From NCBI GenBank assembly GCA_963745295.1, contig CAVUWG010000001.1, positions 131,286 through 195,285 of the forward strand: a stretch of DNA of 64,000 nt, in the 5' to 3' direction. This document shows positions 2,125-64,000 of the stretch, piece after piece. Origin of the DNA: an uncultured Chloroflexia bacterium (lineage in GTDB: Bacteria; Chloroflexota; Limnocylindria; Limnocylindrales; CSP1-4). Under the pieces are notes generated by a model. It saw only the letters and a list, made by a program, of their open reading frames with translations, did no database searches and had not been told where the DNA came from. The stretch's first letter is position 1; each line of letters begins with the position of its first letter. Position numbers and translations under genes: made by a program.

Positions 2125-2285
2125 CCCACGCCGCGTGGTCGCGAAGCCGGTGCGATTCCGGCACAGTCCCGCTACGGTGACCGCCCTCTCGCGAGGGCGG
2201 AAGTCCGGTCGCCGACCCCACGGTGCTTTGCTCGAACCTTCGAGAGAAAGGTAGGCAGGACCGTGCGATCCACCGGATAGGCCCC
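2125..2285 (+). promoter_or_regulatory. cobalamin (B12) riboswitch
   Basis: The conserved core 'gtggtcgcgaagccggtgcgattccggcacagtcccgctacggtgac' (2135-2180) is followed by a B12-box-like 'ggaagtccggtcgccgacc' (about 2199-2217). It sits directly upstream of a B12-type ABC transporter and cob nucleotide-loop genes. The boundaries are approximate. Confidence 0.75.
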
Positions 2286-2364
2286 TCCCTTCGACGATGA
2301 AGCGAGGGGCTTCGCGATTCCTCGCGACCCTCGCGCTCCCTTCCACCATCCGGAGGCTCCCCGC

Positions 2365-6068: not shown

Positions 6069-6108
6069 CGCGGTCGAGCCTCGTCGCCGCGCCACCGGGG
6101 AGGGTCGC

Positions 6109-34519: not shown

Positions 34520-34523
34520 TCGG

Positions 34524-34541
34524 GGAGGACCCTCCCCGAAC
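34524..34541 (+). terminator. short GC hairpin downstream of fabG (candidate terminator)
   Basis: 'cggggaggaccctccccg' has inverted arms cggggagg/cctccccg, immediately after the fabG stop. No clear U-tract follows. Confidence 0.35.
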
Positions 34542-34578
34542 GGGCCGAACGGGCATCGCATGCTAGACTCGCGCCGCT

Positions 34579-35991: not shown

Positions 35992-35999
35992 CAGATCGC

Positions 36000-37515: not shown

Positions 37516-37558
37516 CGTACGGGTGTCCGTTCCGGGGAGGTCTGGTAGGGTCAAGGGC

Positions 37559-46476: not shown

Positions 46477-46506
46477 GCGCCCTGTTCGAGGTAGGACCGA
46501 CGCTTC

Positions 46507-48612: not shown

Positions 48613-48648
48613 TCTAGCCGGCCCCTCGGGCTGGCTAGACTGTCGCGG

Positions 48649-50338
48649 ATGGCTCAAGAGGACGTGGCGACGCTCGATCGCCGGATGGGCGGCATCCCAG
48701 CCTTCTACGGCGCCATCTGGTCGGAGGCGCGGGCCGCGGCGACCCGCTGGCATCTCGCGATCGTCATCGAGATCGCGATGATCGTGGCCTGGTTCGCCAT
48801 CCGCTCCACTGCGGGCGTCGACGGACGGGCCTATCTCCTGTGGGTGATCGCGGCCGGCGTCCTGGCGCTCGTCGCGCCGCTGTCCGGCCTCGTCGTGTTC
48901 GTCGCGACCTCGGTCTTCTTCGAGCCCGACACCATCGCCTCGCATCGTCCCGCTGCGCGTGTGGGTCCTGGTCCCGCTCGCTGCCGGCGTGCTGATCCGG
49001 ATCGCGGCCGACCGCCTCCGCTGGCGACCGGCGCTGGCCATCTGGCTCGCCCTGCTGCTCGTGCTCGGGACGGCGCTCGGCGTCGTGAACACGTTCGACC
49101 GCTTCCCCGACGAGATCGCGTGGCGCGCCGCCCGGTCCTGGTTCAACAACATGGCAGGTCCGGTCATCCTCCTGATCGCGGCCGCGTGGACGGCGCGCGG
49201 CGGATCCATGCGGGTGCTCGTCGTGGCGTGCGGGGTCGCCGTGGTCAGCGCGACGGTCGCGATCGCCGAGCACGCGTCGCCGGGGCTGTCTCGGGGGGCC
49301 GGCTCGATTGGGTCGGGTTCTGGAAGGACTTCGGGGCTCGCCTCGGCGGCACGATGCCCTCGCCGAATGCCCTGTCCGCCCAGCTGATCGTGCCGACCGC
49401 GGTGCTGGGTGGCCGCCCTGCTCCTTGCGCGCGACATCCGGATCAAGGCGCTCGCGCTCATCGGGCTCGTGCCGTTGGTCATCGCTCACTACCTGACGTT
49501 CAGCCGGGCGCCGCTGCTCGGGCCGTATGTGTTCGCCGTGGTGGTCGCGTGGCGGTTCCGACGGGCGCTCGGGATCGCGGTGCTCGTGGTGGGCTCGCGG
49601 CGGGAGCCGTGCTGCTGCCCGGCTACCTGCAACTCCGGGCACAGACCTCGGGCACGCCGACCATTCCCGGGACCGTCCTGGTCGCCTCGGACGAGTATCG
49701 CTTCCAGGCCTGGCGTTCGGCGATCGCGATGTGGCAGGACGAACCCCTCATCGGGCAGGGGTACCTCGCGTATCGGCAGCTCGGGCCGGAGTACGGCGAC
49801 CAGCTCCTGGGATCGCCCCACAACGAGTGGCTGCGCCTGTTCGCCGAGGAAGGCACCGTCGTCGGCCTGATCGGGATCGCCTTCGTGCTCGCGACGACCT
49901 GGACCCTCACCCGGGTCAAGGGCTGGCTCGGTACCGGGCTCCTGGCCGGGATTCCTCGCATATGTCGTGGCGGCAACGTTCAACAATCCGTTCCTCTTCA
50001 TCCGGGTCAGCGCCGTCGCGTTCGCGATGATCGGCGTCGGCCTGGCGTTGGCCGAGCGTGCCCGGGCATCGACCCTTGAAGAAGCGCCGCTGACCGAAGC
50101 GGTCGACTTCGAAGCGATTTCCGACACCGCCACCGAGCCGACCGAGGCCGCCCCCGAACCGACCCAGGCCGAAGCCGGGGCCGACGAACCGACCCAGACC
50201 GACGCCACCCCCGAACCGAACCAGGCCGAAGCTGCGCCCGAGTCGACCGACGAACCGACCCAGACCGAAGCCGTGACCGACGAACCGACCCAGGCCGAAG
50301 CCGGCGCCGCCGAGGAGCCTGGCGAACCGCCCGCCTAG
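48649..50338 (+). pseudogene. O-antigen ligase/polymerase-like (Wzy_C) membrane protein with an acidic repeat tail, five frameshifts
   Basis: Plausible sequence alternates between the frame of ORF 48649..50079 and the frame shared by ORFs 48959..49387, 49409..49870 and 49967..50338. The Wzy_C-like motif is SPHNEWLRLFAEEG. The breaks lie near 48940, 49293-49298 (a G6 run), 49405, 49595 and 49948. Confidence 0.65.
50131..50335 (+). repeat. degenerate tandem coding repeat (EPTQ[AT]EA acidic units)
   Basis: Repeated 'gacgaaccgacccag(a/g)ccga(a/c)gcc' units encode TEPTEAAPEPTQAEAGADEPTQTDATPEPNQAEAAPESTDEPTQTEAVTDEPTQAEAG. Confidence 0.7.
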
Positions 50339-50371
50339 CCGAGCCCTGCGTCGGCGCTACACTGGCCGAGC

Positions 50372-51432
50372 ATGCCGATCAGCCTCCTGCGCCTCGTCGG
50401 ACTGGTCTTCGCCATCGTGCTCGTGCTGGTGGCGATCGGGCGGCTCCGACGCCGCGGCGCCGGCAGCCGCGTCCCGGCGACCGGACTGCTCGCCGTCGGG
50501 CTCGGCCTCTTCGCGGTCGCGCTGTTCCCGGACCTGGTCCGTCCCATCCAGGACGTGCTCGGCCTGGCGGGCGAGCCGCTCGGGCGACTGGTCACCGTCC
50601 TCGTCGATCTCGGTCGTCGATCGCCTATGTCCTGCTGTTCTACGCCCTGGGCCGAGCCGATCGCGCCAACCAGCGGGTCAGCCGGCTCGTGCGGGCGCTG
50701 TCGGCCGCCCAGCTCGAGGCCGCCCGAGGCGAGACGATGGGGCGGCGTCCTCGTCTGCATCCCGGCGCTCGACGAGGCCGAGAGCCTGCCGGCCGTCCTC
50801 GCCGAGGTCCCGGCGGAGGTCGCCGGCCTCGTCGACCCACGTCCTGGTCATCGACGACGGCTCGCGCGACGGGACGGCCGACGTCGCCCGGGCGAAGGGC
50901 GCCCACGTCGTCAGCCACCCGGTCAACAGCGGCCAGGGCGCCGCGCTCCAGACCGGCTACCTGGTCGCCGAGCGGCTCGGCGTCGAGGTCGTCGTGACGC
51001 TCGACGCCGACGGCCAGCACGATCCGGCGCAGATGGAGCGCCTGGTCGAGCCGATCGTCCGCGACGAGGCGGACTTCGTGGTCGGCTCGCGACGGATGGC
51101 GCGAGGGCGAGAGCGCGGACGCGTCGAAGGCGCGCGACGCCGGGATCACGGTCTACACGCGGCTCATCAACCTGCATCGGCGGCACCGAGGTCAGCGACA
51201 TCGCCAACGGCTACCGCGCGATCCGGGCCTCGCGCCTGGCCGAGATCGCGTTCACCGAGGACCAGTTCCACAACCCGGAGCTGCTGCTGGGCGCGGCGCG
51301 CGCCGGCCTGCGGGTCGTCGACGTGCCGGTCACCATCCGCCGCCGGACGGCCGGCGATCATCGAAGAAGGGCACCGACCTGCGCTACGGGCTCGGGTTCC
51401 TGCGGGTGATGCTCAAGACCTGGCTGCGCTGA
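50372..51432 (+). pseudogene. DUF2304-like membrane segment followed by a family-2 glycosyltransferase (polyprenyl-phosphate sugar synthase-like), about six frameshifts
   Basis: The pieces are MPISLLRLVGLVFAIVLVLVAIGRL... (frame of 50372) and ...IAYVLLFYALGRADRANQRVSRLVRAL (frame of 50689). Then come VLVCIPALDEAESLPAVL (50372 frame) and VLVIDDGSRDGT...TLDADGQHDP (frame of 50994). The last three are ...GITVYTRLINL, IGGTEVSDIANGYRAIRASRL and SKKGTDLRYGLGFLRVMLKTWLR (stop 51430-51432). The breaks lie near 50610, 50740, 50830, 51100, 51173 and 51357. Whether DUF2304 and GT2 are one gene or two is unresolved. Confidence 0.6.
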
Positions 51433-51434
51433 AC

Positions 51435-52569
51435 GTGGCCGGACCAGCCGCCATCGCCCGGACACAGGAGGTGCCCGAGGCCCCGATCCCATTCCACCTC
51501 CCGGCGATGCCAGACGTTGAGGCGTTCCTCGAGGACGCACGGGCGATCGTGCGATCCGGGCGCTTGAGCGAAGGGCCCTACGTCCATCGTCTCGAGGAGC
51601 GCCTGGGATCGTGGCTCGGCGACCGTCCGGTCGTCGCGGTGTCGAACGCATCGGACGGTCTCGTCGCGGCCCTCGTCGTCCTCGCCAGGCCCGGCTGCGA
51701 GGTCATCATCCCGGGCTTCACGTTCTATGCCACGTGGCAGGCGGTCGTCTGGGCCGGGATGACGCCGGTCATCGTGGACGTCACCGACGACGGCCTGATC
51801 GATCCCGACGCTGTCGCGGCGGCCATCACGCCCCAGACCGGGGCGATCCTGGCGGTGCACCTTACTGGTTCACTTGCACCGATGCGACCTCTGCGGATGC
51901 TCGCCGACCGAAATGGCCTCGCCCTGATCGCTGACGCCGCCCACGCGATCGGGGCCCGCGACGGCGATCTCGCTACTGGTTCGATGGGCGATGCGGAGGT
52001 CGTCAGCATCGGTGCGACCAAGCAGGTCGCTGCGGGTGAAGGCGGCGCCGTCACCGTCCGCGACCCGGACAAGGTCTCCGGCATGCGGCGCTTCAAGCTC
52101 CAAGGTCGGCAAGCCGGCGCGATGGACGTCCTGGGAGCGGGGATGAACCTGCGCCTCGCGGAGCTCACCGCGGCGCTCGCCCTTCGCCAGCTCGACGGCC
52201 TCAGCGAGCAACTCGCGCGTCGTCGAGCGATCCACGAGCGCTACGCGACGGCCGTCGCGGACCTGCCGCTCAGGCTGTCCGGCACCCGATCCGGGACGAC
52301 TTCAGCGCATAAGGATCAGCTCGTCTGGCCGGACGACCCCGCCGACCGGGCGCGCCTGCGACGAGCGCTCGCCGAGGCCGGGATCGAGACCAAGCGCTAC
52401 TACGAGGTCGCGATCCCGGACCTCACGGCATTCTCGGGTCGGGTCGAATTCGGCGGACCGCAGCCGCGCGCTCGCCGCGCGCTCGTTCGCGATCCCGATC
52501 CACGCGCGACTGGAGGACGACGACGTCGAGCGGGTCATCACGGCCATCGTCGGCTTCTACCGGAACTAG
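51435..52569 (+). pseudogene. DegT/DnrJ/EryC1/StrS-family sugar aminotransferase, one frameshift near the 3' end
   Basis: This lies inside ORF 50994..53600 (start GTG 51435 or 51471), with ...IPFHLPAMPDVEAFLEDARAIVRSGRLSEGPYV.... The true C-terminus RSRALAARSFAIPIHARLEDDDVERVITAIVGFYRN* is in another frame (TAG 52567-52569). The break lies at about 52452-52462. Confidence 0.7.
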
Positions 52570-52574
52570 TCGCG

Positions 52575-53600
52575 GTGACCGTTCGCCTGGGACTGGCGCG
52601 TCGCGACCCGGACCCGCACACGGAGTCGCTGCTCGAGGCCATCGCACTGGCGGCGGAGTCGATCAACGTGCGCCCTGCGTGGCTGCGAAGGACCGAGGAC
52701 CAGGCTGAGTTCGACTTGGTTCTCGCCGTGGGAACCCCGCGCTACTACCCGTGGCTTCTCGACTCGCCTCCTGCCTCGACACGGATCTCGTGGTTCGGGG
52801 AGCCGCTGCCTCGAGGCTCGAAAGCCACTGCCCGATTCGGATACCGGCCGGGCCTAGGTCGGTCCGGGGGCATCAGCGGATCTCTCCTTCGAGCCACGAG
52901 ACGCGTGGCCGGACCCCTGAAGTGGACGCCCCTGCCTGGCCAGCTTGGCGCATGGCGGGAGGCCGCTGCCATCGAGCAGGAGCGTGTCGACAATCTGGCG
53001 CTGACCGCGAGATGCAGCAGTCGCGGAACACGCATCGTCGTGACGTCGTTCGATCGCGGCGCGGCCCTCGCGGCGGCCGGGATCCCGGCGTCGGTCGTGC
53101 CCTTCGGCTATCACGCCCGCCACGCTGGTCCGTTGACGCCACCCGACAGTGCACGGGACATCGAGGTCGTCATCATCGGTTCCGGGATGACCTCGACACG
53201 CCGTCGGCGCGGTCGCATCCTGTCCGCATTGCGTCCCGGGCTCGGACGCCTCGGACTCGTCGTCGAGATCGACGGCCGGTGGGGCGACGAACGCGACGCG
53301 ATCCTGCGTCGCGCGCGGGTCGTTCTGGATATCCAGAGGGTGCCGGGAAACTTCACGGGCTTGCGATGGCTTCTGGCGTCCGCGGCTGGGGCAGCGTACG
53401 TCGTCGAACCGATCGACGACCCCTCTCCGTTTCGAGTCGGCATCGACCATGTCGAGGCTCCGACCGAGTCATTGATCGACGAGGTCGCGCGACTGCTCGA
53501 GGATGAGCCACGTCGGCGATCGATCGCCGAGGAAGCGCAGCAACTGTTACGAGGTGACCTGGCGATGCATCGATCACTCGAGCGTGTCCTCGCCGGATGA
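52575..53600 (+). CDS. hypothetical protein, glycosyltransferase-like (GT-B C-terminal-half-like)
   Basis: This is the tail of ORF 50994..53600 from GTG 52575. The C-terminal half resembles Glyco_trans_1-type domains (IEVVIIGSG...RARVVLDIQR...AAGAAYVVEP). Confidence 0.45.
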   Translation: MTVRLGLARRDPDPHTESLLEAIALAAESINVRPAWLRRTEDQAEFDLVLAVGTPRYYPWLLDSPPASTRISWFGEPLPRGSKATARFGYRPGLGRSGGISGSLLRATRRVAGPLKWTPLPGQLGAWREAAAIEQERVDNLALTARCSSRGTRIVVTSFDRGAALAAAGIPASVVPFGYHARHAGPLTPPDSARDIEVVIIGSGMTSTRRRRGRILSALRPGLGRLGLVVEIDGRWGDERDAILRRARVVLDIQRVPGNFTGLRWLLASAAGAAYVVEPIDDPSPFRVGIDHVEAPTESLIDEVARLLEDEPRRRSIAEEAQQLLRGDLAMHRSLERVLAG

Positions 53601-54229
53601 GTACACAGCGACCACGGCTGATCCTCGCCGGGGCTGGGCGATTCGCGGAGGAGATCACGGATATCGCGGCGGACGCAGGGCTGGATGTCGCCGCCTGGAT
53701 CGAAGGGCTCGATCCGGAACGGGCCGACCCTGGGCATCAGCCCCCGATCGTCTGGGTAGCAGACCAAAGGTCGTTCGCCCCCGGAACGCCCGTCGTGCCG
53801 GCGATCGGTTCGCCACGACGTCGAGCGCTGATCGAACGGCTCGTGTCAGAGGGGCGAGAGCTGGCGACGCTCATCCATCCGTCGGCGGTCGTGGCGCGTT
53901 CCGCGAGCATCGGTCCTGGCTGTGTGCTGTTCGCCGGCGTCATCGTCGGGGCTCGGACCACGATCGGCCTCGGAACCATCATCAACCGCGGCGCTCTCAT
54001 CGGTCATCACACCGCCATCGGCTCGCATGTCTTCGTGGGTCCTGGGGCGAACATCGCGGGCGGCGTGACCATCGGCGACGAGTCGTACATCGCGATGGCT
54101 GCGGTCGTCCGCGACGATCGAACGGTCGGCGCTCGAGCGACGGTCGGAGCCGGAGCCGTCGTGGTCGGTGACGTTCCGGCAGACACGACCGTGGTCGGGC
54201 TTCCGGCCCGCCCTCTGGCTCTCACGTGA
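53597..54229 (+). CDS. NeuD/PglB/VioB-family hexapeptide-repeat sugar N/O-acetyltransferase
   Basis: ORF 53597..54229 (ATGA overlap) has an N-terminal Rossmann-like domain and a C-terminal left-handed beta-helix (GPGCVLFAGVIVGARTTIGLGTIINRGALIGHHTAIGSHVFVGPGANIAGGVTIG). Confidence 0.8.
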   Translation: MSTQRPRLILAGAGRFAEEITDIAADAGLDVAAWIEGLDPERADPGHQPPIVWVADQRSFAPGTPVVPAIGSPRRRALIERLVSEGRELATLIHPSAVVARSASIGPGCVLFAGVIVGARTTIGLGTIINRGALIGHHTAIGSHVFVGPGANIAGGVTIGDESYIAMAAVVRDDRTVGARATVGAGAVVVGDVPADTTVVGLPARPLALT

Positions 54230-54267
54230 TCGGCGGCTCTTGAAGTCGGGATCGTGGAACCCCAGCC

Positions 54268-55839
54268 TACTGATGACCCGTCCCGTGCGGGTCGGGCCGG
54301 TCAGGATCGTCGCCCTGGGTCAGCAATGCGCAGATCCGCTCTGCAGACCGCCCGTCGACGGGTCCCGTGACCGATTTCGAGGGTCGCCCGACGCCGACCG
54401 AAGTAGTCGGCACGCCGATCGGGTTCGAGGAGTTCTCTCGCTAGCGTCGCGAGCGCGGCTCCGTCGGCCACCCGTGGCAGCGCCAGCCCGAGCAGGTCGA
54501 GGTCGGCGATCGACCTTCCATCAAGATCAGCCGCAACGACCGGCGTTCCCGCAGCGAGGGCCTCGACCGCCACGGACGACCGATGGACGAGCACGAGATC
54601 GGCCCACCAGAGCAACGGGTCGATGGGCTCGCGATCGACCACGCGAACGCGGGCCTTGCTGTCACCGAGCCCATTCACGATCTCCTCGATGCGGGACCAG
54701 TCGCCGCCACCGGGATGGAGCTTGATCACGAGTGATGAATCGGCTAGCAGCCGTGTCGATTCGATCGCGATGCGCACGAGCGCCTCACTCGTCTCTGCCG
54801 ACGACCCACTCAGCGCCACGAGCAAACGGGGCCGACCGTCGAGGGACAACCGCTCTGACACGCTGGCACGGATCGCCGTTCGATCGGTCCGGACGGTCCG
54901 ATCGAGCCTCGGATTCCCGGTGACAGCAAGCCGATCCGGTTCGGTCCCGCCGGCGATGAACCAGTCACGCGACGCCTCGCTCCAGGTCGCGACCGTGTCG
55001 GCAACGACCGGGAGGAAGCCGAGCGTGTCCTGGGGAAGCCCATGCTGGAGGACGATGAGGCGCCAAGTCGCCGTCTTCCGGATCGTCGCCGCAAGCCGGC
55101 CGATCCGATGCTGGTCAGAAGCGACGACGACATGCCTCGGCTCGACCGTCGCCAGGACTCGCTCGATGGCTCGGCGCTCGACCGCCAGCCACGGAACCGA
55201 TTTCAGGACGAGCGGCCTGAGCGCTGCGAGGATCTCGGAGGTGACGTCACGCCCTCGGAATGACACCGAAGGCGGGCTGGCGGCGAATGCTTCCCAGACA
55301 CGCTTGGCTGAGCCGGAGGCTTCCGCGAGGAGCCGTCGTTCCTCGCGCATGGCGAGGAGCAGGGGGATCGGGGTCTGACCCTCGCGACGCCAGGCACGAT
55401 GCGCGCGCGGGTCGGAGGTGGCGACCCGATAGGCGTCGGATGGGAGGGACCGGGCGACGATCATCGACGGTTCGAGCGTGGACGGCGTCGCGAGCTCCGA
55501 GAGGAACAGCACCGGTGCCTGGGCCACGACGAGCGGCCGCGGCCGAGATCCCGTTGATCGCCCCAACGGCCACCCGCCGACGGTTCCGCGGAGGGCCCAG
55601 GTGCGAAGCGACCGATCGAGCCCTCTCCGTTTCATCGCCCGGTAGAGCGTTCGTCCCGGCGGGTCGGATTCGCCGCCGTTTCGGCGGGAGACATCGAGGA
55701 TCGCGTCGAATGCCTCGACGAGGATCGTCGGCCCGGTCTCGATGCCGTCGATGGCGAGCCGATCGCGACCTGCGTGGTCGAGATTCCAGGACCGAGCGAC
55801 CCGATCGGCCCACGTGTAGGCCGATTCGATCTCAGACAT
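54268..55839 (-). pseudogene. GT-B-fold glycosyltransferase-like / capsule-biosynthesis-like protein (candidate nonulosonic-acid transferase), one frameshift near the 3' end
   Basis: ORF 54301..56163. The likely start is ATG 55839 (MSEIESAYTW...). The C-terminal half is GT-B-like (LVLVHRSSVAVEALAAGTPVV). The last ~35 aa read better in another frame (VDGRSAERICALLTQGDDP..., stop 54268-54270). The break lies at about 54355-54365. Confidence 0.5.
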
Positions 55840-56935
55840 GCTGCGTGGCCGGCTGGAGATCTCCCCTTCGTGGGGCGACCGGTTCGAGTCCGACGAGCAA
55901 GTAGTATGGGGCGCTGTCCGATCTTGGCCACAGGTCCGAAGGCCCGATCGATTCACGCACCACATCGAGGCGGACGTCCGCTTGACAACGCTCACTGACA
56001 TCGTCGCCGTTCCGGAGGCGACGTCTTGCCCTGCGTGCGGCGGGGACCAGGTCTCCGTTTCGGTGTTGGGCGAACGCCGGTTCCCGATCGGACGTTGTAC
56101 GGCATGCGGGCTGCGCTGGCTCCTCGACCCCATCTCTGAAGGCGAGCTTGCCGCGCTGTACACGACGGGCTTCTATGAGCCGAAGCGCGCTCGCGGTGGC
56201 GCGCTGATCGACAGCCTCCATCGAATGAACAATGCGGTACGTCTCCGGGAGTTGTCGGGGTTGCGTCCTGGACGCTTGCTCGATGTCGGCTGCGGAAAGG
56301 GCCGATTCCTGGCAGCAGCTCGTGCGGCCGGGTGGGATGTCGCAGGCGTCGAGTTCGCTCCCGCTTCCGCCGAGGCTGCTCGCGCCGCGTACGGGATCGA
56401 CGTCGCCGTCGGGGACTTCGTGTCCTTGCCACTCGAGCCTGACTACGATGTGATCACGATGTGGCATGTGCTTGAGCACCTGCCGGATCCATTCGCTGCC
56501 GTTCGTCATGCCGCGGAACTGCTCCGACCCGGCGGGCGCCTCGTCATCTCCGTCCCGAACATCGCGAGCCTGCAGGCTCGAATCGGCGGAGATCGGTGGT
56601 TCCACCTCGATCTGCCGCGACATCGCATGCATTTCACTCCGCGGTCCCTGTCGGCGCTGGTCACCAGGTCCGGCATGAAGGTCGACAGGATCGGTCATTT
56701 CTATCCGGAGATGGAGGCGATCGGCCTCGTGCAGTCGATCCTGAACAAGACTGGCACCGAGACCGACCTCCTGTACCGCTTCGCGAAGCGCGATCCGAGC
56801 GCAGCGTTCGGGCCGCCGGTCGCCGCCTCGCTTGCCGTGGCCGTGGTCGTCGCACCGGCAGCGATCACGTGGACACTCGTGGCGCCGATGCTTCGCACCG
56901 GCGCGAGCATCCAGCTCGTCGCACACCGGCCGTGA
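55838..56935 (+). CDS. class I SAM-dependent methyltransferase with an N-terminal Cys4 zinc-ribbon
   Basis: ORF 55838..56935 carries CPACGG...CTACG, then the SAM motif LLDVGCGKGRF and MWHVLEHLPDP. The start codon is uncertain; the first ~45 codons may not be translated. Confidence 0.75.
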   Translation: MLRGRLEISPSWGDRFESDEQVVWGAVRSWPQVRRPDRFTHHIEADVRLTTLTDIVAVPEATSCPACGGDQVSVSVLGERRFPIGRCTACGLRWLLDPISEGELAALYTTGFYEPKRARGGALIDSLHRMNNAVRLRELSGLRPGRLLDVGCGKGRFLAAARAAGWDVAGVEFAPASAEAARAAYGIDVAVGDFVSLPLEPDYDVITMWHVLEHLPDPFAAVRHAAELLRPGGRLVISVPNIASLQARIGGDRWFHLDLPRHRMHFTPRSLSALVTRSGMKVDRIGHFYPEMEAIGLVQSILNKTGTETDLLYRFAKRDPSAAFGPPVAASLAVAVVVAPAAITWTLVAPMLRTGASIQLVAHRP

Positions 56936-56955
56936 CGGATCCGGTCAACGGGTCG

Positions 56956-58350
56956 TCAACCGACGGGGACCGGGGCCGGATCCGCATCGCTGGGTTGCTG
57001 TGACGCCCAGCCATATGTGGCGGCGACCGCGATCAAGAGCCAGCCGACGAGGCCCATCCGGACGTTGAAGAGGTTCGAATTCGTCAGGTCCGCGACCGCA
57101 TAGGCGAACGCCGCAGCCGAAATGGCGGCGACAGTCACGTCGATCGCGGGCCACGAGGACGGCCGGCGCGCCCCCAGGAGGACGATCGTCAGCGACGCGG
57201 CGAGCAGGATCAGATAGCCGATCGCCAGAGGCAACCCATACTCCGCCGCCGCTTGCAGGTAGGCGTTGTGGACATCGGCGACCAGGGGCTCGAACTGGGC
57301 GTGCCGATACCGCTGGACGTTCCATTGATACGGGCCAACCCCGGTCAGCGGGTTCTCCTGGGCCATCTGTATCGCCAGGCTCCAGAACTCCGCCCGAGAC
57401 CGGATCTCCGAGTAGACCGGCATGGAGCCTGGGTCCATGACGCCTTCGAGCGCTGCGCCGGGGGTCGTGAAGATCGACACCGTCCGGCTCCCCTCGGCGG
57501 TCAGCAACGTTGCTGAGCCGACGATCGCGACGGTGATGCCGAGGATCGCTCCGACTCGTGCGATACCGGCACGCGATCGCCACCCCCGGTTCAGCAGCAG
57601 CATCAGCAGTGCCGCTCCCGCGAGTGCGACAAGTGACATGCGAGTCCCTGTCGCGACGGCTCCGAAGAGGGTGGCGGCGCTGATCATCGCTGCACCGACC
57701 ACGAGAGCCGTGTCCACCGGGGAGGCGCGACGGCGGCCCCATCGGCTAAAGACGATGCTTGCCGTGAGGATGGTCACCACGACCAGGGCGATCGCGAATG
57801 TGTTCCGGCCGAATGTGGTTGCCGTGAACCGATCCTGGTTGAAGATCGTGGACGTGTAGAGGCCGTTTGCGAGAAGGATCGCGCCGCCGCCCGCCGCCCC
57901 CAGGGCAAGACGGAACGCATCCCCTGCCGTCCGAATGAGCGAACCCGCGAGCCACAGGACCGCTGCGAGCCCGGCGAAGACCACCACCCCACGAACAGCC
58001 GCCCCAGGTTCGACGCCTCGCGAGATCGCCACAGCGGCCGACACGCCGGCCAGCCCGACCAGGATCGCGGCCAGGCCGACGAGGACACGGGGCGTCCTCA
58101 CCTCCCGACCCTCGCGGATCGTCAACAGGAGAGCCCAAACGAGGAGAAGATCGACGACCGAGACGACCGGTGCGGTGCTGTCGGCGATGTCGTTCGGATC
58201 GAGCCGCATCTGCGGAAGCAGATCGTCGAGGTTGCCGGGGATGGCAAGCAATGCGAAGAGGAGAGCTGGAAGGCGCCATTCTCGCGAGAGCATCAGCACG
58301 GCCAGCACGATGGCGAGGCCGATACCCGCGAGGAGGATCGCGTTCGTCAA
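56956..58350 (-). CDS. O-antigen ligase family (Wzy_C) membrane protein
   Basis: ORF 56956..58350 is intact. It has about 11 TM segments and the Wzy_C loop motif (VHNAYLQAAAEYGLPL). Confidence 0.75.
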   Translation of the reverse strand: MTNAILLAGIGLAIVLAVLMLSREWRLPALLFALLAIPGNLDDLLPQMRLDPNDIADSTAPVVSVVDLLLVWALLLTIREGREVRTPRVLVGLAAILVGLAGVSAAVAISRGVEPGAAVRGVVVFAGLAAVLWLAGSLIRTAGDAFRLALGAAGGGAILLANGLYTSTIFNQDRFTATTFGRNTFAIALVVVTILTASIVFSRWGRRRASPVDTALVVGAAMISAATLFGAVATGTRMSLVALAGAALLMLLLNRGWRSRAGIARVGAILGITVAIVGSATLLTAEGSRTVSIFTTPGAALEGVMDPGSMPVYSEIRSRAEFWSLAIQMAQENPLTGVGPYQWNVQRYRHAQFEPLVADVHNAYLQAAAEYGLPLAIGYLILLAASLTIVLLGARRPSSWPAIDVTVAAISAAAFAYAVADLTNSNLFNVRMGLVGWLLIAVAATYGWASQQPSDADPAPVPVG

Positions 58351-58438
58351 CGACGGACCTATGCTGCTGCCTGGGGCCTGAGGAGTAGCCGGAACCCGGC
58401 GTGGGCGGACGACGGCCAGTTTACGTCACGCTCGGTGA

Positions 58439-59758
58439 TCAGCCTCCAGACCATTCGCCAGACTCGGTGGTTGGCGGCGTCATCATCTTTCGGATCAAGA
58501 GACGTCCGCTCGCGAACAACAAGACGGCGTAGATGGTCATGCTGACGGTCAGGGCGATCGCAACGCCGACCAGCTCAAGTCCCGACATCAAGAGGGCAAC
58601 GGACAGGGCGACGTCGATGGCCAGGACCAACGCCTGGATCGCCAGGTAGCGGCGTTGTGCGCCGATCGTGTTGAGGAGATCGCCGAACGCGGCACCAAGC
58701 CCGTAGATACCCAGCCCGATCAGCGTGATCAGGAGCGGCACCACCGCCTCCTGGTACTCGGGAAGGAATCTCGGGATGCCGAGTGTCGCGACGATCGCGG
58801 CGGCCAGCGCCGCGATGCACACGAGTCCTCCGGAGATAAGGCTCTGGCGCGACGCGAGAGCCAGGAGGGCCTCGCCACCCCGTCCGGCACCGTAGGCGAA
58901 CGCGAGCCGTGGGTAGTACTGCTGGCTGACGATGCCCGGCAACAGGAGGAGTCCGCTCACGGTGATGCCCACGATCCCGTAGTAGCCGACCTGGACTCGA
59001 TCGAGATAGATCAGGATCAGCCACCGGTCGATCGTCGTCAGCAGACCGAAGAGCAGGCCCGCGAGCATGATCGGCAGGCCCACGTACACCAGGCGTCGTG
59101 CGATATCGGGATCCCACATCGGCCGCGGGATGCCACCAAGGAGCCGCGCCGCCATCGCGAGAGCGACGACATACACCACGACCTGTGAAACCGCCAGGCC
59201 GATCAGGCCGAACGTCAGGAGCGGCAAGCCGATGAGGATCGTCGCCCCGCCGAGGACCGCCATCTGTGCGGCCGCGCTACGGAACCGAAACCGGGACCGG
59301 AGCAGGACCTGCTGCAACAGGTAGAACTGTTGAAGCAAGACGGCCACGCTCAGTGCCAGGACCAGGCTCAGGTCGGCTGTCTCGGGCCCGAGGATGATCG
59401 GCCCGACCACGAGCGCAAGAAGGGCGGCCGCGAGCCCAAAGGCGCAGGTGGCCAGGAGGGTCACGCCTTCGACCCGGCGGGCCGCGTCAGGTTGCGATGC
59501 GCCCAGGAGGTATGGGATCTCCCGTCCGGCCCCGTTCGTGATGCCCAGCGACGCAAAGTTCGAATACAGCACGACGAGCACGAAGAGCGTCCAGACCCCG
59601 AACACCTCGGGGCCGAGCACCGCCGCGGCGACGAGGCTCAGGAGAAGCCGGGCGCCTTGATAGACGAGCGTGCCTGTGGCGAACGCGGCGAAGTCCCCGG
59701 AGCCCGGTCCGGCGAATCGGGATCGGAACCGTCGGCGATCCTCCGACCCCGCCATCAC
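58439..59758 (-). CDS. polysaccharide flippase (Wzx, MOP superfamily)
   Basis: ORF 58439..59758 is intact. It is a 439-aa polytopic protein with the typical polysaccharide-biosynthesis-protein pattern. Confidence 0.75.
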   Translation of the reverse strand: MMAGSEDRRRFRSRFAGPGSGDFAAFATGTLVYQGARLLLSLVAAAVLGPEVFGVWTLFVLVVLYSNFASLGITNGAGREIPYLLGASQPDAARRVEGVTLLATCAFGLAAALLALVVGPIILGPETADLSLVLALSVAVLLQQFYLLQQVLLRSRFRFRSAAAQMAVLGGATILIGLPLLTFGLIGLAVSQVVVYVVALAMAARLLGGIPRPMWDPDIARRLVYVGLPIMLAGLLFGLLTTIDRWLILIYLDRVQVGYYGIVGITVSGLLLLPGIVSQQYYPRLAFAYGAGRGGEALLALASRQSLISGGLVCIAALAAAIVATLGIPRFLPEYQEAVVPLLITLIGLGIYGLGAAFGDLLNTIGAQRRYLAIQALVLAIDVALSVALLMSGLELVGVAIALTVSMTIYAVLLFASGRLLIRKMMTPPTTESGEWSGG

Positions 59759-59936
59759 GCCGGCGCGTTGAGCAGTTGTCCGGGGCGGTCACCGGTTGGA
59801 GACGAACGGCGCATCAAGGGTGGCGAGCGAGCCCTCCTGAACCGGAGCCGGTTCGGCCAGCTCGGCAGCGATCGCATGCCGTACCGCCCGCCGATCGACC
59901 CTGAGTATATCGGCGGCACGGCGGGGATCACGGACT

Positions 59937-60992
59937 TCAGAAGATGGCTCGAACACCCCGGATCCGCTGCCCGACGAGCACGATCAGAAAGCTCCCGACG
60001 ACCGCGAACACGTACGCGGGGATGCGACCTGACACCAGCGCGGCGGGAGAACCCGTCACGAAGGTCCCGGCGTACCAGTACAGCAACATCTCATGGATCA
60101 GAAACACCCCGTACGTCGCGGCGGCTAAGGCGGCGACCCACTGCCCGACCGCGTCTGACCGATGCTGACGCGGCGTCTCCTGAGCGCACAGAGCGTAGAT
60201 CAGGAGGGACGTGACGATGACGAATACCGACCAGTAGCTTTGCGGATAGAGCTGCCACGATCCGTCTCCGGACCCGGCCAGCACGAACACCGCGAGGATC
60301 TGCCCGCCGATGATGACCAGGACGGTTGCGGCAAGGACCAGTGTCACCGTTCGTGTGAGGCGCAGCCCGATCAATGCCCGGCCGGCGATGTAGAAGCCGA
60401 GGAATGGCACCCAGTACGTCAGCCCGTTGACCCTCGTGCCCGCGTCCAGTGCGTAGGACGATGCCGTATCGAGCGCCGCGACTCCAAGCAAGGCGCCTGC
60501 TGCCACCGAAAGTTGCCGTCGCGATGCGCGCTCGGTGAACGGGCGCAACAGCGGTGTCACGAGATAGAGGCCGATGATCACGTACACGAAGTACAGCTGT
60601 GTGAACGGTCGACCCATGGCGAGATCGGTTGCGACGATCGTGGGCGTCAGATCCTGCTGGAGGTACGTCGCGCGGAACACGAGGTACGCACCGATCCAGA
60701 ACAGGGCCGGAACGCCGACACGGACGAGTCGCCGGCGGTAGAACGTCCCTGCCGTCTCGCCCGGTCTTGGCCCCAGGAGAAAGCCACCGGAGATCATCAC
60801 GAAGACCGGGACGGCCCATCGCGTCGCGGACTCGATGGCGTCCACCGCCCACCATCGCGGAGTCCCGACCGACAGGACGTCGAGCAGCGACCAGTTGTGG
60901 ATGGCGATCACAGCGAGGATCGCCCCGATGCGTGCCCCGTCGACATAGAACTGCCGAGTCGGTCGCTCCGGGGATGAAAGCTGGCTCGTCAC
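59937..60992 (-). CDS. acyltransferase family 3 membrane protein (sugar O-acyltransferase)
   Basis: ORF 59937..60992 is intact. It has the Acyl_transf_3 pattern (FYVDGARIGAILAVIAIHN...). Confidence 0.75.
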   Translation of the reverse strand: MTSQLSSPERPTRQFYVDGARIGAILAVIAIHNWSLLDVLSVGTPRWWAVDAIESATRWAVPVFVMISGGFLLGPRPGETAGTFYRRRLVRVGVPALFWIGAYLVFRATYLQQDLTPTIVATDLAMGRPFTQLYFVYVIIGLYLVTPLLRPFTERASRRQLSVAAGALLGVAALDTASSYALDAGTRVNGLTYWVPFLGFYIAGRALIGLRLTRTVTLVLAATVLVIIGGQILAVFVLAGSGDGSWQLYPQSYWSVFVIVTSLLIYALCAQETPRQHRSDAVGQWVAALAAATYGVFLIHEMLLYWYAGTFVTGSPAALVSGRIPAYVFAVVGSFLIVLVGQRIRGVRAIF

Positions 60993-61043
60993 CTGCTGCG
61001 ACTCAACGCATCCTGTGATCGCCGCCGCGCCAGCGAGTCCGCG

Positions 61044-62105
61044 TCAGGCGTCGGTGAGCGGAGGCAGGACGTCTGCGGCTCGCACGCCATCTCCCGCAGC
61101 GATCGCGCGCGCGGCGTGACGGCCACGCAGAGCCTCGAGGTGTCGTGGGTGCATGCCGGCGGGCCGCTGGCCAGGTCGGAGGACATCGATGTTCTCGGCC
61201 TCGACGAGGGCCTCGCCGGCCGCGATGTCACGTGTGGTCTGGATGCTGCGAACCGCGAATCGCCGCAGCTCTTCCTCGTGAGGCCCGACGCCTTTCTGTC
61301 CGTCGCCACGCGTGCGTTCCGCGACGCGGATCGCCTGGATCATCGCCCTGAGTCCATCGGGCTCGATCGCAAACGCGTGGTCCGGGCCGGGCAGCCGTTG
61401 GTCGAGCGTGAAGTGTTTCTCGATGACAGTCGCCCCGAGTGCGACAGCAGCGACCGGCCCGACGATCGGGTCACTGCTGTGGTCCGAAAAGCCCGCGGGC
61501 ACGCCGAACCGCTGCTGCAACCAGGGGATGACCGTCAGGTTCAGGCTTTCGGGCGGGGCAGGGTAGCTCGAGGTGCACTGCAGGAGCGTGATGTCGCCGG
61601 AGCCCGCCTCCCGGACGGTCTCCAAGCAGAACTCGATGTCGTCCTCGGTGGCGGCACCCGTCGAGATGACGAGCGGCTTGCCGGTCGCGGCGAGCCACTG
61701 GAGCAGGCGCACATGGTTGATCTCGTAGCTGGCGACCTTGTGGCGCCGCACGTGGGGATCGACAGCTTCCGCATCGGCGACCGAAAACGGCGTTGACATG
61801 AACTCGATGCCCACCTGCTCGCAGTAGGCGGCGATGTCGCCGATCATCTCGTACGGCATTTCGAGATCCACGAAGATGTCGTTGATCGAGCTCGGTAGCC
61901 CCGATTCGGCCAGGTACTCGGTGGATCCAGCGTCGGCGACGTACGTGGAGTCCGCCCGATACGTCTGGAACTTGACTGCGTCGGCTCCGGCCTCGAAAGC
62001 GACGTCGACGAGGGCGCGGGCCATCTGCCGGTCGCGATCCGGCGTGCCCATCCGCCAGTTGCTGCCGGCCTCGGCAATCACGAAGACATGCTGAACGTGG
62101 GTCAT
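61044..62105 (-). CDS. pseI: NeuB-family nonulosonic acid synthase, pseudaminic acid synthase-like
   Basis: ORF 61044..62105 has a NeuB TIM barrel (FVIAEAGSNW, AVKFQT, GFSDHS, VIEKHFTLD) and a C-terminal SAF domain. Pse specificity is inferred from the adjacent PseG and PseC homologues. Confidence 0.8.
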   Translation of the reverse strand: MTHVQHVFVIAEAGSNWRMGTPDRDRQMARALVDVAFEAGADAVKFQTYRADSTYVADAGSTEYLAESGLPSSINDIFVDLEMPYEMIGDIAAYCEQVGIEFMSTPFSVADAEAVDPHVRRHKVASYEINHVRLLQWLAATGKPLVISTGAATEDDIEFCLETVREAGSGDITLLQCTSSYPAPPESLNLTVIPWLQQRFGVPAGFSDHSSDPIVGPVAAVALGATVIEKHFTLDQRLPGPDHAFAIEPDGLRAMIQAIRVAERTRGDGQKGVGPHEEELRRFAVRSIQTTRDIAAGEALVEAENIDVLRPGQRPAGMHPRHLEALRGRHAARAIAAGDGVRAADVLPPLTDA

Positions 62106-63610
62106 GGTCCTGCAGGCAAGTCCGTTGCTGGCGTCGCGTCAGCCGATGCGACGGCATGGTACAGGAGGATGCCCGCTCGATCGCCCACGAGACGGAACCC
62201 CGATCGCTCGAACAGTCGGCGCGAGGCTTCATTGTCGACCCGGACTCGGGCCGTCAGTTCGCCGCGCGGGGACCGCGAGCGGAACAGCCGAACGGCACGC
62301 TCCAACAGGAGGCCGCCGATCGTGCCGCGCAGCTCTGGCGCGACGGTTATCGAGACCTCGGCCCCGGTCTCATGACGGTCGAACCTGACTTGGCCGACTG
62401 GTCCGGCTCCGTTCTCGCCGATCAAGAGCACCCGGGCTGGATCGCCAAGGGCACCCCGAAGCCAGCTCCTGTGGGCAGGCAAGGGAATCTCCGCCTGCTC
62501 CAGTGACGCGGCACGTGTGGCGGGGTCGTTCCTCCACCGCAGCAACAGGTCGGCGTCCGCCATCGTGGCGCGGCGGATCCGGACCCCGTCGATGTGGTTT
62601 GCCAACCGCTCGACGCCTCGGCCGTCGACGAGATCCCGTCCCCGATCGCTCATCGCTTGACGTGTCGCGGCGTCGTCCGCCAATCGCCGGATCAGATTCG
62701 CCAGTCCGGTGACGTCCATTCCATCCAGCGGGCCAGCGTCGATCGCCGCGCCCGCCCGGGCCAGCCGCCGCGTACTCGTGTCCTGGTTCCGGGCGACACG
62801 CACGATCACCGTGGGCACGCCGAGGGCGCATCGCTCCCACGAGGTCGTGCCACCGGCGCCCACGGCCATGTCGGCGCTTCGCATCAGCCGAGCCATCGCC
62901 TCGTCCCCGATCGCTCGGTGCACGTTGGTGCGCGGTCCCTGAACAGGGTCCCCGTGGTGGAGGGCTCCGAGGACGACCTCGATTCTCGCCGCCGGCAAGG
63001 CAAGCCGGATGGCGTCGACCGCTGTCCGGGTCGCCCCGACGGTATCGCTACCACCCATCGTCACGAGGACGTTCGTCACGTCCGGAGCCGCAGGTAGCCG
63101 GCCGGCGACGCGAAAGGCCGGCCGCAGGGGGACGAATCGAGTGCCGAGCAGCAGGCGGGTCGCTGGATCGGCCAAGCCCGCGTAGTCGTCGGGCATCACC
63201 CCGAGATTCGGATTCACGAGGAGTTCGGACGGGAGGGGACGGTCGGCCAGGTCATCGATCACCACGCGTCGCTTCGTGAGTCTGCGGGCCCTCCCCAGCC
63301 ACTCCGTGCCGAGCCCGTAGTGGTCGACCAGGACAGCCTCGAATGGCCGTCCGCGGCCTTCGCGGCCGACAAAACGGCTGATCTCGGCGACTTCCTCCGT
63401 TGCGGAGCCGTCGACCGGGATGACCGAGTGACGCGTGGCGTCAAGAGCATCGAGCAGGGGGATGGCCCCAGGTCGCACGGCGAACGAGAGCTCCATCCCT
63501 CGCCGTGCAAGCTCCGTCGCGAGTGCGACGCATCGCACGAGGTGGCCCGTTCCGATCGACTGCGATGCGTCAACTCGGAAGAGCACCCTGCGTGGCCGCG
63601 AAGTGCCCAT
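62102..63610 (-). CDS. pseG: PseG-like UDP-2,4-diacetamido-2,4,6-trideoxy-hexose hydrolase fused to a C-terminal GNAT acetyltransferase (PseH-like)
   Basis: ORF 62102..63610. The N-terminal ~340 aa are PseG-like (VLFRVDASQSIGTGHLVRCVALA...MGGSD). The C-terminal ~160 aa form a GNAT domain (IRRATMADADLLLRWRNDP...VAPELRGTIGG...NEASRRLFERSGF). Confidence 0.75.
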   Translation of the reverse strand: MGTSRPRRVLFRVDASQSIGTGHLVRCVALATELARRGMELSFAVRPGAIPLLDALDATRHSVIPVDGSATEEVAEISRFVGREGRGRPFEAVLVDHYGLGTEWLGRARRLTKRRVVIDDLADRPLPSELLVNPNLGVMPDDYAGLADPATRLLLGTRFVPLRPAFRVAGRLPAAPDVTNVLVTMGGSDTVGATRTAVDAIRLALPAARIEVVLGALHHGDPVQGPRTNVHRAIGDEAMARLMRSADMAVGAGGTTSWERCALGVPTVIVRVARNQDTSTRRLARAGAAIDAGPLDGMDVTGLANLIRRLADDAATRQAMSDRGRDLVDGRGVERLANHIDGVRIRRATMADADLLLRWRNDPATRAASLEQAEIPLPAHRSWLRGALGDPARVLLIGENGAGPVGQVRFDRHETGAEVSITVAPELRGTIGGLLLERAVRLFRSRSPRGELTARVRVDNEASRRLFERSGFRLVGDRAGILLYHAVASADATPATDLPAGP

Positions 63611-63617
63611 CGATGGG

Positions 63618-64000
63618 CTACTCGAGCAGGTCGCGCGCGAGGGTGGTCACCGTCTCGACCACGCGGGACACGTCCTGATCCGAGAGTCCAGGAAAGATCG
63701 GGAGCGAGATCGCGCGGGCGTAGAACTCCTCCGCCGCCGGACAAGCACCTGCCGGATACCCGAGGTCCTGGTAGTACGGGTGGAGATAGACCGGCAGGTA
63801 GTGCACCTGGACGCCGATCCCGCACTCTCGGAGCGCCTCGAAGAACCGCCGGCGGACCGATGCGGGAACACGGACGACGTACAGGTGCCAGGCCGACTCC
63901 ACATCATCGCGACGGACCGGCAGGTCCAGTCCCGGGACCGACGCGAGATCGCGGTCGTAGACATCTGCGATGGACCGACGTCGAGCCAGGAACTCGGGAA
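63618..64000 (-). CDS. pseC: DegT-family aminotransferase, PseC-like (5' end outside the window)
   Basis: The frame of ORF 63618..63902 stays open to the window edge (PEFLARRRSIADVYDRDLASVPGLDLPVRRDDVESAWHLYVVRV...GIGVQVHYLPVYLHPYY...LPIFPGLSDQDV). Confidence 0.75.
   Translation of the reverse strand, partial: PEFLARRRSIADVYDRDLASVPGLDLPVRRDDVESAWHLYVVRVPASVRRRFFEALRECGIGVQVHYLPVYLHPYYQDLGYPAGACPAAEEFYARAISLPIFPGLSDQDVSRVVETVTTLARDLLE

Follow-up and report, generated by a model that had tools for sequence, protein, structure and literature searches.

Genes of the block

The DNA analyzed here, referred to as the window, is a stretch of 64,000 nucleotides (nt) from an uncultured Chloroflexia bacterium (GenBank assembly GCA_963745295.1, contig CAVUWG010000001.1, positions 131,286 to 195,285 of the forward strand). 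The host, known from a metagenome-assembled genome (MAG), is a soil Limnocylindria-like member of the Chloroflexota and not an actinobacterium; the term high-GC monoderm (GC, guanine plus cytosine content) used in an earlier reading of this DNA, hereafter the original prediction, is acceptable. The aspartokinase encoded in the window has metagenome relatives at 94-99% identity, and those of its relatives that carry a name, at 85-86%, are labelled 'Candidatus Limnocylindrales bacterium', which belongs to the Chloroflexota. From about 51.4 kb to the window end runs a block of surface-glycan genes, and the locus to which it belongs extends to at least 72 kb in window-equivalent coordinates. We consider it probable that the block forms the middle of a conserved glycan locus of the cell surface, inherited vertically, for a nonulosonic acid of the pseudaminic series, activated with cytidine monophosphate (CMP), and that the frame breaks in and beside it are consensus errors. 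The observations on which this reading is built are the assignment of genes to families or equivalogs, their synteny, their composition and a comparison of the assemblies.

Two further assemblies of the same species were compared with the window, contig_16284 (ENA ERZ25039494; locus excerpts L001 and L086) and contig_115692, and the three share 99.6-99.85% identity across 21 kb of housekeeping backbone. Contig_16284 (1.03 Mb) is 99.73% identical to window positions 51039-64000, encodes the exact NeuB protein of the window and was followed to about 8 kb beyond the window end; the genes past 64000 were read from it (L001). Contigs of two related species (L013 and L091) and of a more distant relative (L002, NeuB 80% identical) were also used. 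A genome-collection scan with NeuB, which retrieves by exact peptide words and is not a taxonomic survey, returned mostly distant matches of 36-57% identity and one related, syntenic MAG, named 'uncultured Chloroflexia bacterium MFD10043.bin.2.10'.

All eleven genes named in the original prediction were recovered with Pfam and NCBIfam models. Seven lie on the minus strand. Read inward from the window end, they begin with the C-terminal 126 residues of PseC (63618..64000; TIGR03588, 112.8 bits over profile positions 260-378 of 380), whose gene runs past the window end, and a PseG fused to a C-terminal, PseH-like GNAT domain (62102..63610; TIGR03590, 206.5 bits for the frame 62102-63646, cut-off 153.55). 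A NeuB-family nonulosonic acid synthase with NeuB and SAF domains (61044..62105; Pfam NeuB, 273 bits) is followed by an Acyl_transf_3 membrane O-acyltransferase (59937..60992; 132.7 bits; 97% identity in L013), a Wzx-type flippase (58439..59758; Pfam Polysacc_synt_3, 34.7 bits) and a 464-aa Wzy_C-domain membrane protein (56956..58350; Pfam Wzy_C, 63.3 bits), which could be a polymerase, a ligase or an O-oligosaccharyltransferase and is called likewise on L001, L004 and L086. The last of the seven is a protein of about 512 aa, here called U566 (54301..55839), assigned to the GT-B glycosyltransferase fold by its predicted structure.

The plus strand carries four genes. A second DegT-family sugar aminotransferase (51421..52569, start possibly GTG at 51434; Pfam DegT_DnrJ_EryC1, 259.6 bits) opens the block, and its intact 382-aa form (L001/L086) reaches the cut-off of none of the DesI, PseC and LegC models. 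It is followed by GT341, a 341-aa glycosyltransferase-like protein (52575..53600; Pfam Glyco_trans_1_2, 28.4-28.7 bits, cut-off 25) that is 96% identical in L013; it gave no NCBIfam match, and a sequence search of the PDB returned no useful match and no solved relative. A left-handed beta-helix sugar N-acetyltransferase of the NeuD/PglB/VioB family (53597..54229) scores 174.7 bits on TIGR03570 (cut-off 160.8) over its full length (1-202 of 202), and the exact protein was found on three other contigs. The fourth gene encodes a class I S-adenosylmethionine-dependent methyltransferase with an N-terminal zinc-ribbon-like segment (55838..56935; Methyltransf_23, 102 bits; zf-ChsH2, 16.3 bits and under its cut-off), which is 86-88% identical in L013 over residues 13-365.

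Two observations concern the arrangement of these genes. The second DegT is absent from both L013 and L091, which share an identical junction joining 51443 to 52559; it behaves as a clean gene-sized indel (window 51444-52558) with a short CCGGA(A/C)C repeat at both ends, and it is carried by the window, both long same-species assemblies and one short Logan contig. The NeuD-type acetyltransferase is retained in the two species without DegT. The ATG codons of the divergent U566 and zinc-ribbon methyltransferase genes overlap in a palindromic CATG (55837-55840); this leaves no intergenic space for a promoter, so that at least one true start, of which that of the methyltransferase is uncertain, probably lies further downstream.

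Past 64000, contig_16284 carries PseB (L001:6326-7348) and the remainder of PseC. On the divergent strand lie a Pse-associated methylase (TIGR03587, 162.3 bits, cut-off 112.05), a cytidylyltransferase (Pfam CTP_transf_3, 105.8 bits) and fragments of WbuX, HisH and HisF, the trio that forms acetamidino groups; a GDP-mannose dehydratase gene is also present. With two methyltransferases, the Acyl_transf_3 protein and the WbuX/HisH/HisF genes at hand, the methylation and acylation that had been suggested for the glycan have candidate enzymes.

Evidence for a pseudaminic-acid-type pathway

The PseB protein scores 504.2 bits on TIGR03589 (cut-off 407.75), compared with 231 bits on FnlA and 60.9 bits on LegB (TIGR04180, cut-off 475). 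Aligned with the Helicobacter pylori FlaA1/PseB structure 2gn4 (372 bits), its STDKA and YGATK motifs match with identical residues. Full-length PseC from L001 reaches 452.8 bits on TIGR03588 (cut-off 423.5) versus 234 bits on LegC (TIGR04181, cut-off 420), and the Campylobacter jejuni PseG structure 3hbm matches the PseG-GNAT protein with E = 1.2e-8. Three enzymes of the proposed pathway, PseB, PseC and PseG, thus lie above their NCBIfam equivalog cut-offs, which upholds the pseudaminic-acid-type assignment. Given a clear PseB together with PseC and PseG above cut-off, the pseudaminic series is the best-supported product, and we hold with good confidence that the product belongs to it. PseB and PseF had been expected just beyond 64000. 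The former was found there in full, and the latter was found at the level of the CTP_transf_3 family.

Several results weigh against a canonical pathway. On the PseF model TIGR03584 the cytidylyltransferase scores 36 bits (cut-off 205.7), and the GNAT domain on PseG, which gives 40.7 bits on Acetyltransf_3, reaches 37.1 bits on the PseH model TIGR03585 (cut-off 93.1). The NeuB homologue obtains 252.6 bits on the PseI model TIGR03586 (cut-off 340.25) and 295.6 bits on TIGR03569 (cut-off 399.65), its best PDB sequence match is SpsE of Bacillus subtilis (250 bits, followed by PseI with 186 bits), and its Parachlamydia clade-mates have no visible PseB or PseG neighbors. The WbuX, HisH and HisF genes are frame-broken on L001.

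The position of NeuB was calibrated with synthases of other loci. Those adjoining PseB and PseG score 484-512 bits on TIGR03586, and for those in contexts resembling legionaminic acid (Leg) loci the NeuB model gives about 503 bits. The window NeuB falls short of both models, as do its relative at 80% identity and the homologues of Parachlamydia and Nitrosotenuis. In a neighbor-joining tree of NeuB homologues, the clade of the window NeuB was recovered in 200 of 200 bootstraps, and its sister relation to canonical PseI in only 92 of 200. The original prediction had been made to depend on NeuB not falling into a non-Pse clade (for example legionaminic or sialic acid) away from pseB and pseF. NeuB does lie outside the PseI clade, but pseB, pseC and pseG are its neighbors, and for that reason its placement does not refute a pseudaminic-acid pathway.

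The same scores invite another reading, in which the product is legionaminic acid or some other nonulosonic acid outside the Pse series, made in the manner of the B. subtilis sps pathway, whose intermediates are linked to uridine diphosphate (UDP). SpsE is the legionaminic acid synthase of that pathway, which superficially resembles a Pse pathway and sets a precedent for Leg synthesis by Pse-like gene sets (PMC7439481). Of the two models, the NeuB/Leg-type one gives the window NeuB the higher score, SpsE is its best PDB sequence match, and the block holds an acetyltransferase of NeuD/PglD type and a second DegT. However, legionaminic acid synthesis in B. subtilis needs a PglF-type non-inverting dehydratase (SpsM, catalytic pair Met146/Lys150), for which pseB cannot substitute (PMC7439481), and the dehydratase here is a clear PseB whose TDK and Y-x3-K residues are those of the H. 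pylori enzyme. A LegB/PglF-type dehydratase and a NeuC-type 2-epimerase of the Leg pathway were not found; Epimerase_2 reached 15.4 bits (cut-off 30.6), and U566 shares the 2-epimerase fold only in a generic way. PseC and PseG exceed their equivalog cut-offs, the two related species without the second DegT retain the rest of the block, and in two other loci (L050 and L065) a NeuB that fails the PseI model is likewise accompanied by PseB and PseG. We therefore regard a legionaminic or other non-Pse product as quite unlikely.

Neighborhoods and fusions connect the three enzymes below cut-off with the pseudaminic pathway. CTP_transf_3 homologues adjoin NeuB in five loci (L008, L009, L011, L031 and L065). 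Pathway enzymes also occur fused in varied pairs: PseG-GNAT in the window, CTP_transf_3-Glyco_tran_28_C, which resembles PseF-PseG, in L092 (13933-15600), and NeuB-GNAT in homologues of about 62% identity. At the level of domain architecture these fusions indirectly link the GNAT domain, the synthase and the cytidylyltransferase to the pathway, and the NeuB-GNAT pair would support a PseH role for the GNAT domain.

U566, a candidate nonulosonate transferase

U566 belongs to a family with some 60 homologues, each roughly 500 aa long, whose alignments extend to within about 20 residues of its C terminus; their annotations read hypothetical or generic glycosyltransferase, and the named members come from Chloroflexi/Chloroflexota. 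DQHR, QHG and K-L-H-P-G are invariant in 52 aligned sequences of the family. The HP motif is therefore present and invariant in U566, and no clear D/E-D/E-G motif was found. An AlphaFold2 model of U566 (mean predicted local distance difference test score, 89.6) led Foldseek to GT-B folds, namely UDP-N-acetylglucosamine (UDP-GlcNAc) 2-epimerases and GT4 enzymes. Weak NCBIfam matches, far under cut-off, were to TIGR04396, a 'surface carbohydrate biosynthesis protein' (28.8 bits), and to the BFO_1060 family NF046086 (27.6 bits, cut-off 200). The latter family holds transferases of Tannerella forsythia genetically implicated in the transfer of pseudaminic and legionaminic acid, Tanf_01245 and BFO_1060, which are of the GT-B type, carry an HP motif and lie beside nonulosonic acid genes (PMC5420450).

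The neighborhood of U566 is similar in related loci. A U566-family gene stands beside Wzx, with Bac_transf and Wzy_C in the same locus, in all four cases (the window, L092, L093 and L094), and NeuB and CTP_transf_3 both lie within 10 kb of it in the window, L092 and L093. Two points speak against a nonulosonate transferase: near the L094 homologue neither NeuB nor CTP_transf_3 occurs within 10 kb, and the fold and PDB sequence matches of U566 are those of generic GT-B enzymes. Judged by its family, model and neighborhood, U566 is a reasonable candidate, and the best in this locus, for the CMP-nonulosonate transferase.

Glycan assembly and attachment

Two genes for enzymes of the LytR-CpsA-Psr (LCP) family had been noted at 34.6-38.7 kb and are indeed there, on the plus strand at 34567-35991 and 37659-38732 (LytR_cpsA_psr, 124.4 and 102.7 bits for the two); between them, on the minus strand, lies a Bac_transf phosphoglycosyl (priming) transferase (36000-37058; 239.6 bits). 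The proposed tie between these genes and the block is plausible, as relatives have Bac_transf and LCP genes directly beside NeuB and U566-family genes, and L002 retains the pseB-pseC-pseG/GNAT-neuB core beside HisH/HisF, Bac_transf and LCP. With Polysacc_synt_3, Wzy_C and Bac_transf, the set for Wzx/Wzy-dependent assembly is complete by family membership, from which function would follow. Taken together, the genes from about 34.5 kb to past 72 kb form a single cell-envelope glycan superlocus adjoining a fatty-acid synthesis operon.

At this site, beside the genes for KAS II, KAS III and biotin carboxylase, L092, L094 and the window (30400-38700) each carry a variable glycan locus that starts with LCP and Bac_transf. 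Such a layout of variable content at a fixed site recalls O-antigen and capsule loci.

The glycan most likely ends up on peptidoglycan, where the LCP enzymes would attach it, and protein O-glycosylation is the main alternative. In the alternative, a Wzy_C O-oligosaccharyltransferase would place an oligosaccharide on proteins such as an S-layer protein, pilin or flagellin, as in the general O-glycosylation system of T. forsythia. Two Wzy_C proteins are available, one of 464 aa in the block and one of 562 aa in the left flank; the Pfam name of the domain is 'O-Antigen ligase', and it also occurs in O-oligosaccharyltransferases of the PglL type. U566, moreover, is weakly similar to the BFO_1060 transferase family of T. 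forsythia (PMC5420450). Against protein O-glycosylation, LCP and Bac_transf recur beside such loci in several relatives, the gene lists examined contain no flagellar, Maf or FlmG genes, and no S-layer gene was identified. A protein-linked glycan is thus an unlikely outcome here, and peptidoglycan attachment is the reading that we retain.

Frame breaks and the left flank

Two frame breaks had been placed in the block, near 52457 and near 54360. The former is real in the window and results from one extra T at 52449 in DegT, where the window has GAATTC and other assemblies have GAATC. This T is private to the window: neither of the two long, near-identical assemblies has it, and an intact 382-aa DegT is also called on a separate Logan contig. 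The break near 54360 does not exist: the convergent genes NeuD (plus strand) and U566 (minus strand) end at 54229 and 54301, respectively, and the lengths of homologues match an intact U566.

Two other gene models in this region were rejected. An 868-aa plus-strand open reading frame (ORF), 50994-53600, that would be a GT2-DegT-GT fusion is ruled out by the separate genes of sister assemblies and by the private T at 52449. For minus-strand ORFs across 51725-54319, Pfam gave only one sub-threshold DUF5828 match, and the coding strand is plus.

The gene at the left boundary (50372..51433, plus strand) encodes a fusion of DUF2304 and Glycos_transf_2 (Pfam), a putative PpgS-like polyprenyl-phosphate sugar synthase that scores 85 bits, under the cut-off, on the model of the polyprenyl-phospho-N-acetylgalactosaminyl synthase PpgS (NF058614). 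In mycobacteria, PpgS and a small stimulatory membrane protein are encoded by separate genes. The fusion gene adjoins two genes for large GT-C-like membrane proteins (DUF6541 and PMT_2), and this arrangement suggests that a wall polymer is decorated outside the cytoplasm from a polyprenyl-phosphate sugar. In the window, the fusion gene is frame-broken by private indels at 50616, 50735, 51102 and 51359-60, and the Wzy_C gene of the flank (ORF 48649-50079) is frame-broken as well. The 3' end of the latter carries two imperfect 96-nt tandem copies, 73% identical (50139-50330), probably a low-complexity tail.

These breaks could mean that the DegT frameshift and the broken neighbors are real and that this strain has an inactive or degenerating locus, and a decaying native locus had in fact been proposed for the flank. 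The number of breaks would fit: the window holds 17 private indel positions, spanning 44988-52449 and 63669, a density about 10 times that of the housekeeping backbone, where 4 gaps occur in 21 kb of alignment with contig_16284. On contig_16284, however, the flank genes are intact (DUF6541, 728 aa; PMT_2-like, 700 aa; Wzy_C, 562 aa; DUF2304-GT2, 350 aa, at L086:6785-7837). A three-way alignment showed that every assembly has its own private single-base indels, and some of these fall in housekeeping genes, KAS II and ThrC being broken in the related assembly L087. Three other assemblies call an intact 382-aa DegT.

The indels also cluster where co-occurring strains differ most, that is, where the consensus of mixed-strain long reads fails. 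The flank at 44-51.4 kb is hypervariable between strains, with divergence up to 5-10%, and most substitutions between strains hit the third codon position (GT2, 37 of 45; PMT_2, 13 of 19). This bias, together with the intact sister genes, indicates functional, diverging alleles with consensus errors rather than pseudogenes. On such codon-level comparison the flank appears as a hypervariable region under purifying selection, and the decay proposed for it is not supported. Contig names in the style of Flye and the 'MFD...' name of a related MAG point to a long-read project. The breaks are almost certainly long-read consensus errors where co-occurring strains differ, and we judge real inactivation or degeneration of the locus highly improbable.

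A caution follows for loci of this kind. In metagenome assemblies from long reads, frame breaks gather in glycan loci that vary between strains, where they can mimic gene decay, and apparent pseudogenes in these assemblies are not trustworthy without polishing.

Composition and inheritance of the block

The lower GC content of the block, first read from 100-nt samples counted by hand, was confirmed by windowed GC, by GC at third codon positions (GC3) and by tetranucleotide usage, and the hand counts were matched to within about 1%. GC is 0.721 over 1-51800 and 0.676 over 51800-64000, and all 12.2-kb windows inside 1-51800 fall between 0.707 and 0.734. Mean GC3, computed on intact gene models from the sister assembly, is 0.923 in 16 backbone housekeeping genes, 0.895 in the four flank genes just to the left and 0.807 in 14 block genes; the backbone and block values are fully separate (Mann-Whitney p = 3.6e-6). 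Measured against the backbone, tetranucleotide distances are 0.22-0.27 inside the block and 0.11-0.20 outside it. The composition changes at about 51.4 kb, between DUF2304-GT2 (GC3 0.93) and DegT and GT341 (0.85 and 0.75).

Such a deviation raised the question of horizontal transfer, and the block had been suggested to be a recently acquired island beside a decaying native glycan locus. Apart from the clear drop in GC, GC3 and tetranucleotide usage, this would fit the within-species pattern, in which 51.45-63.6 kb is near-identical in the three same-species assemblies and both flanks vary by 1-10%, as could arise from a recent sweep. In L002, moreover, a Transposase_mut fragment (6007-6222) lies immediately upstream of pseB, and the genes flanking the pse core are rearranged there. 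The low GC persists for at least 8 kb past 64000.

Comparison with the related species argues otherwise. L013 and L091 carry the same gene order at the same junction as the window; the L013 block is 87% identical to that of the window in nucleotides, and in L091 left flank and block are equally diverged (83.7% and 84.5% identity), with the GC drop at the same place. Any acquisition therefore predates these species. Boundary scans of the block, extended past 64000 among the called genes, found no tRNA gene, no integrase-family match among called genes, no flanking repeat and no bounding Rfam family, although an integrase or tRNA boundary had been proposed as a check. Of the features of a genomic island, atypical composition is present, whereas mobility genes, a tRNA or att boundary and absence from relatives were not found. 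The supposedly decaying genes are intact on contig_16284 with substitutions biased to codon position 3, NeuB relatives named Limnocylindrales stand at 63-65% identity, and surface-glycan loci commonly show lower GC. We consider a recent horizontal island very unlikely; the lower GC is an old, conserved and stable property of a vertically inherited locus.

Within the species, the almost invariant 51.45-63.6 kb contrasts with 43.6-51.4 kb and with the pseC-to-wbu interval past 63.6 kb, which differ by several percent. Divergence between strains reaches 5-10% in the GT-C-like, Wzy_C and GT2 genes and 4-8% in pseB, pseC, the cytidylyltransferase and wbu (L001:2500-8500 versus L004). Such a pattern suggests that recombination has made a mosaic of this surface-glycan locus, although mixed-strain consensus artefacts may account for it.

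Far from the block, an AdoCbl (B12) riboswitch was found at 2116-2261 (Rfam RF01482, 53.8 bits, gathering score 50), directly upstream of a Peripla_BP_2 gene (2281-3423).

Proposed pathway and comparison with known systems

From these genes we infer the exact stereochemistry of the sugar, the transferase that adds it and the acceptor, wall or protein, as follows. On the minus strand the genes would form an operon in the order pseB-pseC-pseG/GNAT-neuB-acyl3-wzx-wzy, the first of which, together with the divergent set (the Pse-associated methylase, the cytidylyltransferase and WbuX/HisH/HisF), would make the CMP-nonulosonic acid. PseB, an inverting 4,6-dehydratase, would act on UDP-GlcNAc, PseC would introduce the 4-amino group, the GNAT domain would acetylate it and the PseG domain would remove UDP. 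The NeuB homologue would then condense the 6-deoxy-L-altrose derivative with phosphoenolpyruvate, and the CTP_transf_3 enzyme would form the CMP-sugar. Methylation of the sugar, or conversion of an acetamido into an acetamidino group, is the probable task of the methylase and amidotransferase genes.

Synthesis of the repeat unit would start with priming of undecaprenyl phosphate by the Bac_transf enzyme (36 kb) and continue with extension by GT341 and U566, the latter as the candidate CMP-nonulosonate transferase. Decoration may come from the Acyl_transf_3 O-acyltransferase and the zinc-ribbon methyltransferase, and the DegT/NeuD pair may provide a second sugar, a 4-acetamido-4,6-dideoxyhexose. 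Wzx would flip the unit, the Wzy_C protein would polymerize or transfer it, and the LCP enzymes would most likely attach the product to peptidoglycan.

A more specific version of this scheme is a partly non-canonical Pse system, in which a third-clade NeuB synthase, grouped with those of Parachlamydia and Nitrosopumilaceae, and U566 as a new family of CMP-nonulosonate glycosyltransferases feed an LCP-anchored wall polymer. We put this forward tentatively, as a possibility with somewhat less than even prospects. The product could be a modified nonulosonate (acetamidino, methylated or O-acylated) or a stereochemically distinct 5,7-diamino nonulosonate.

In pathogens, loci for pseudaminic acid are common and well understood, so that the pathway as such is nothing new. 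What modest value the present case has lies in the host, in that a complete, syntenic Pse-type glycan locus occurs in uncultured soil Limnocylindria; full-text searches of the literature for Chloroflexi or Chloroflex- terms with pseudaminic or nonulosonic acids found incidental mentions only and no report of such a pathway. Two leads emerge, a clade of synthases that the curated PseI and NeuB models do not cover and an unannotated GT-B family as the possible missing nonulosonic-acid transferase, an enzyme class with few characterized examples.

Compared with the CMP-Pse pathway of C. jejuni and H. pylori, PseB, PseC and PseG are recognized here, while a GNAT domain, a NeuB-family synthase and a CTP_transf_3 enzyme fill the remaining three steps; the TIGR03587 Pse-associated methylase and WbuX, of the N-acetyl sugar amidotransferase family, are further likenesses. 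The locus differs in that PseG and GNAT are fused, in that the synthase, GNAT domain and cytidylyltransferase fall under the PseI, PseH and PseF cut-offs, and in that the sugar would feed a Wzx/Wzy route rather than Maf-dependent flagellin glycosylation. The B. subtilis sps pathway shares UDP-linked intermediates, a monoderm host, an acetyltransferase (SpsD) and an SpsE-type synthase, and SpsG is PseG-like. Its SpsM, however, is of the PglF type, whereas the dehydratase here is of the PseB type, with Tyr and Lys aligned to those of H. pylori PseB.

Like the T. forsythia transferases, which belong to a system with a Pse/Leg-terminated S-layer O-glycan, U566 has the HP motif, within its invariant K-L-H-P-G, and it weakly matches the BFO_1060 model. 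Its score on that model, 27.6 bits with a cut-off of 200, nevertheless places it outside the family, a TagB-like domain was not detected, and in the present monoderm host LCP-linked attachment is likelier than protein O-glycosylation.

Gram-positive Wzx/Wzy loci such as pneumococcal cps combine a priming transferase, glycosyltransferases, Wzx, Wzy, an O-acetyltransferase and LCP ligases, are low in GC and vary between strains at a fixed site. The same enzyme set, a GC content below that of the genome and strain-variable content at a fixed site recur here. In contrast to cps-type loci, the site adjoins a fatty-acid synthesis operon, no tyrosine-kinase chain-length regulator was seen, and GT-C-like membrane proteins and a polyprenyl-phosphate sugar synthase fusion are added. 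Teichulosonic acids and Pse-containing polymers occur in the walls of actinomycetes, which are also high-GC monoderms; the likeness lies in nonulosonic-acid glycopolymers of such walls, and the difference in the phylum.

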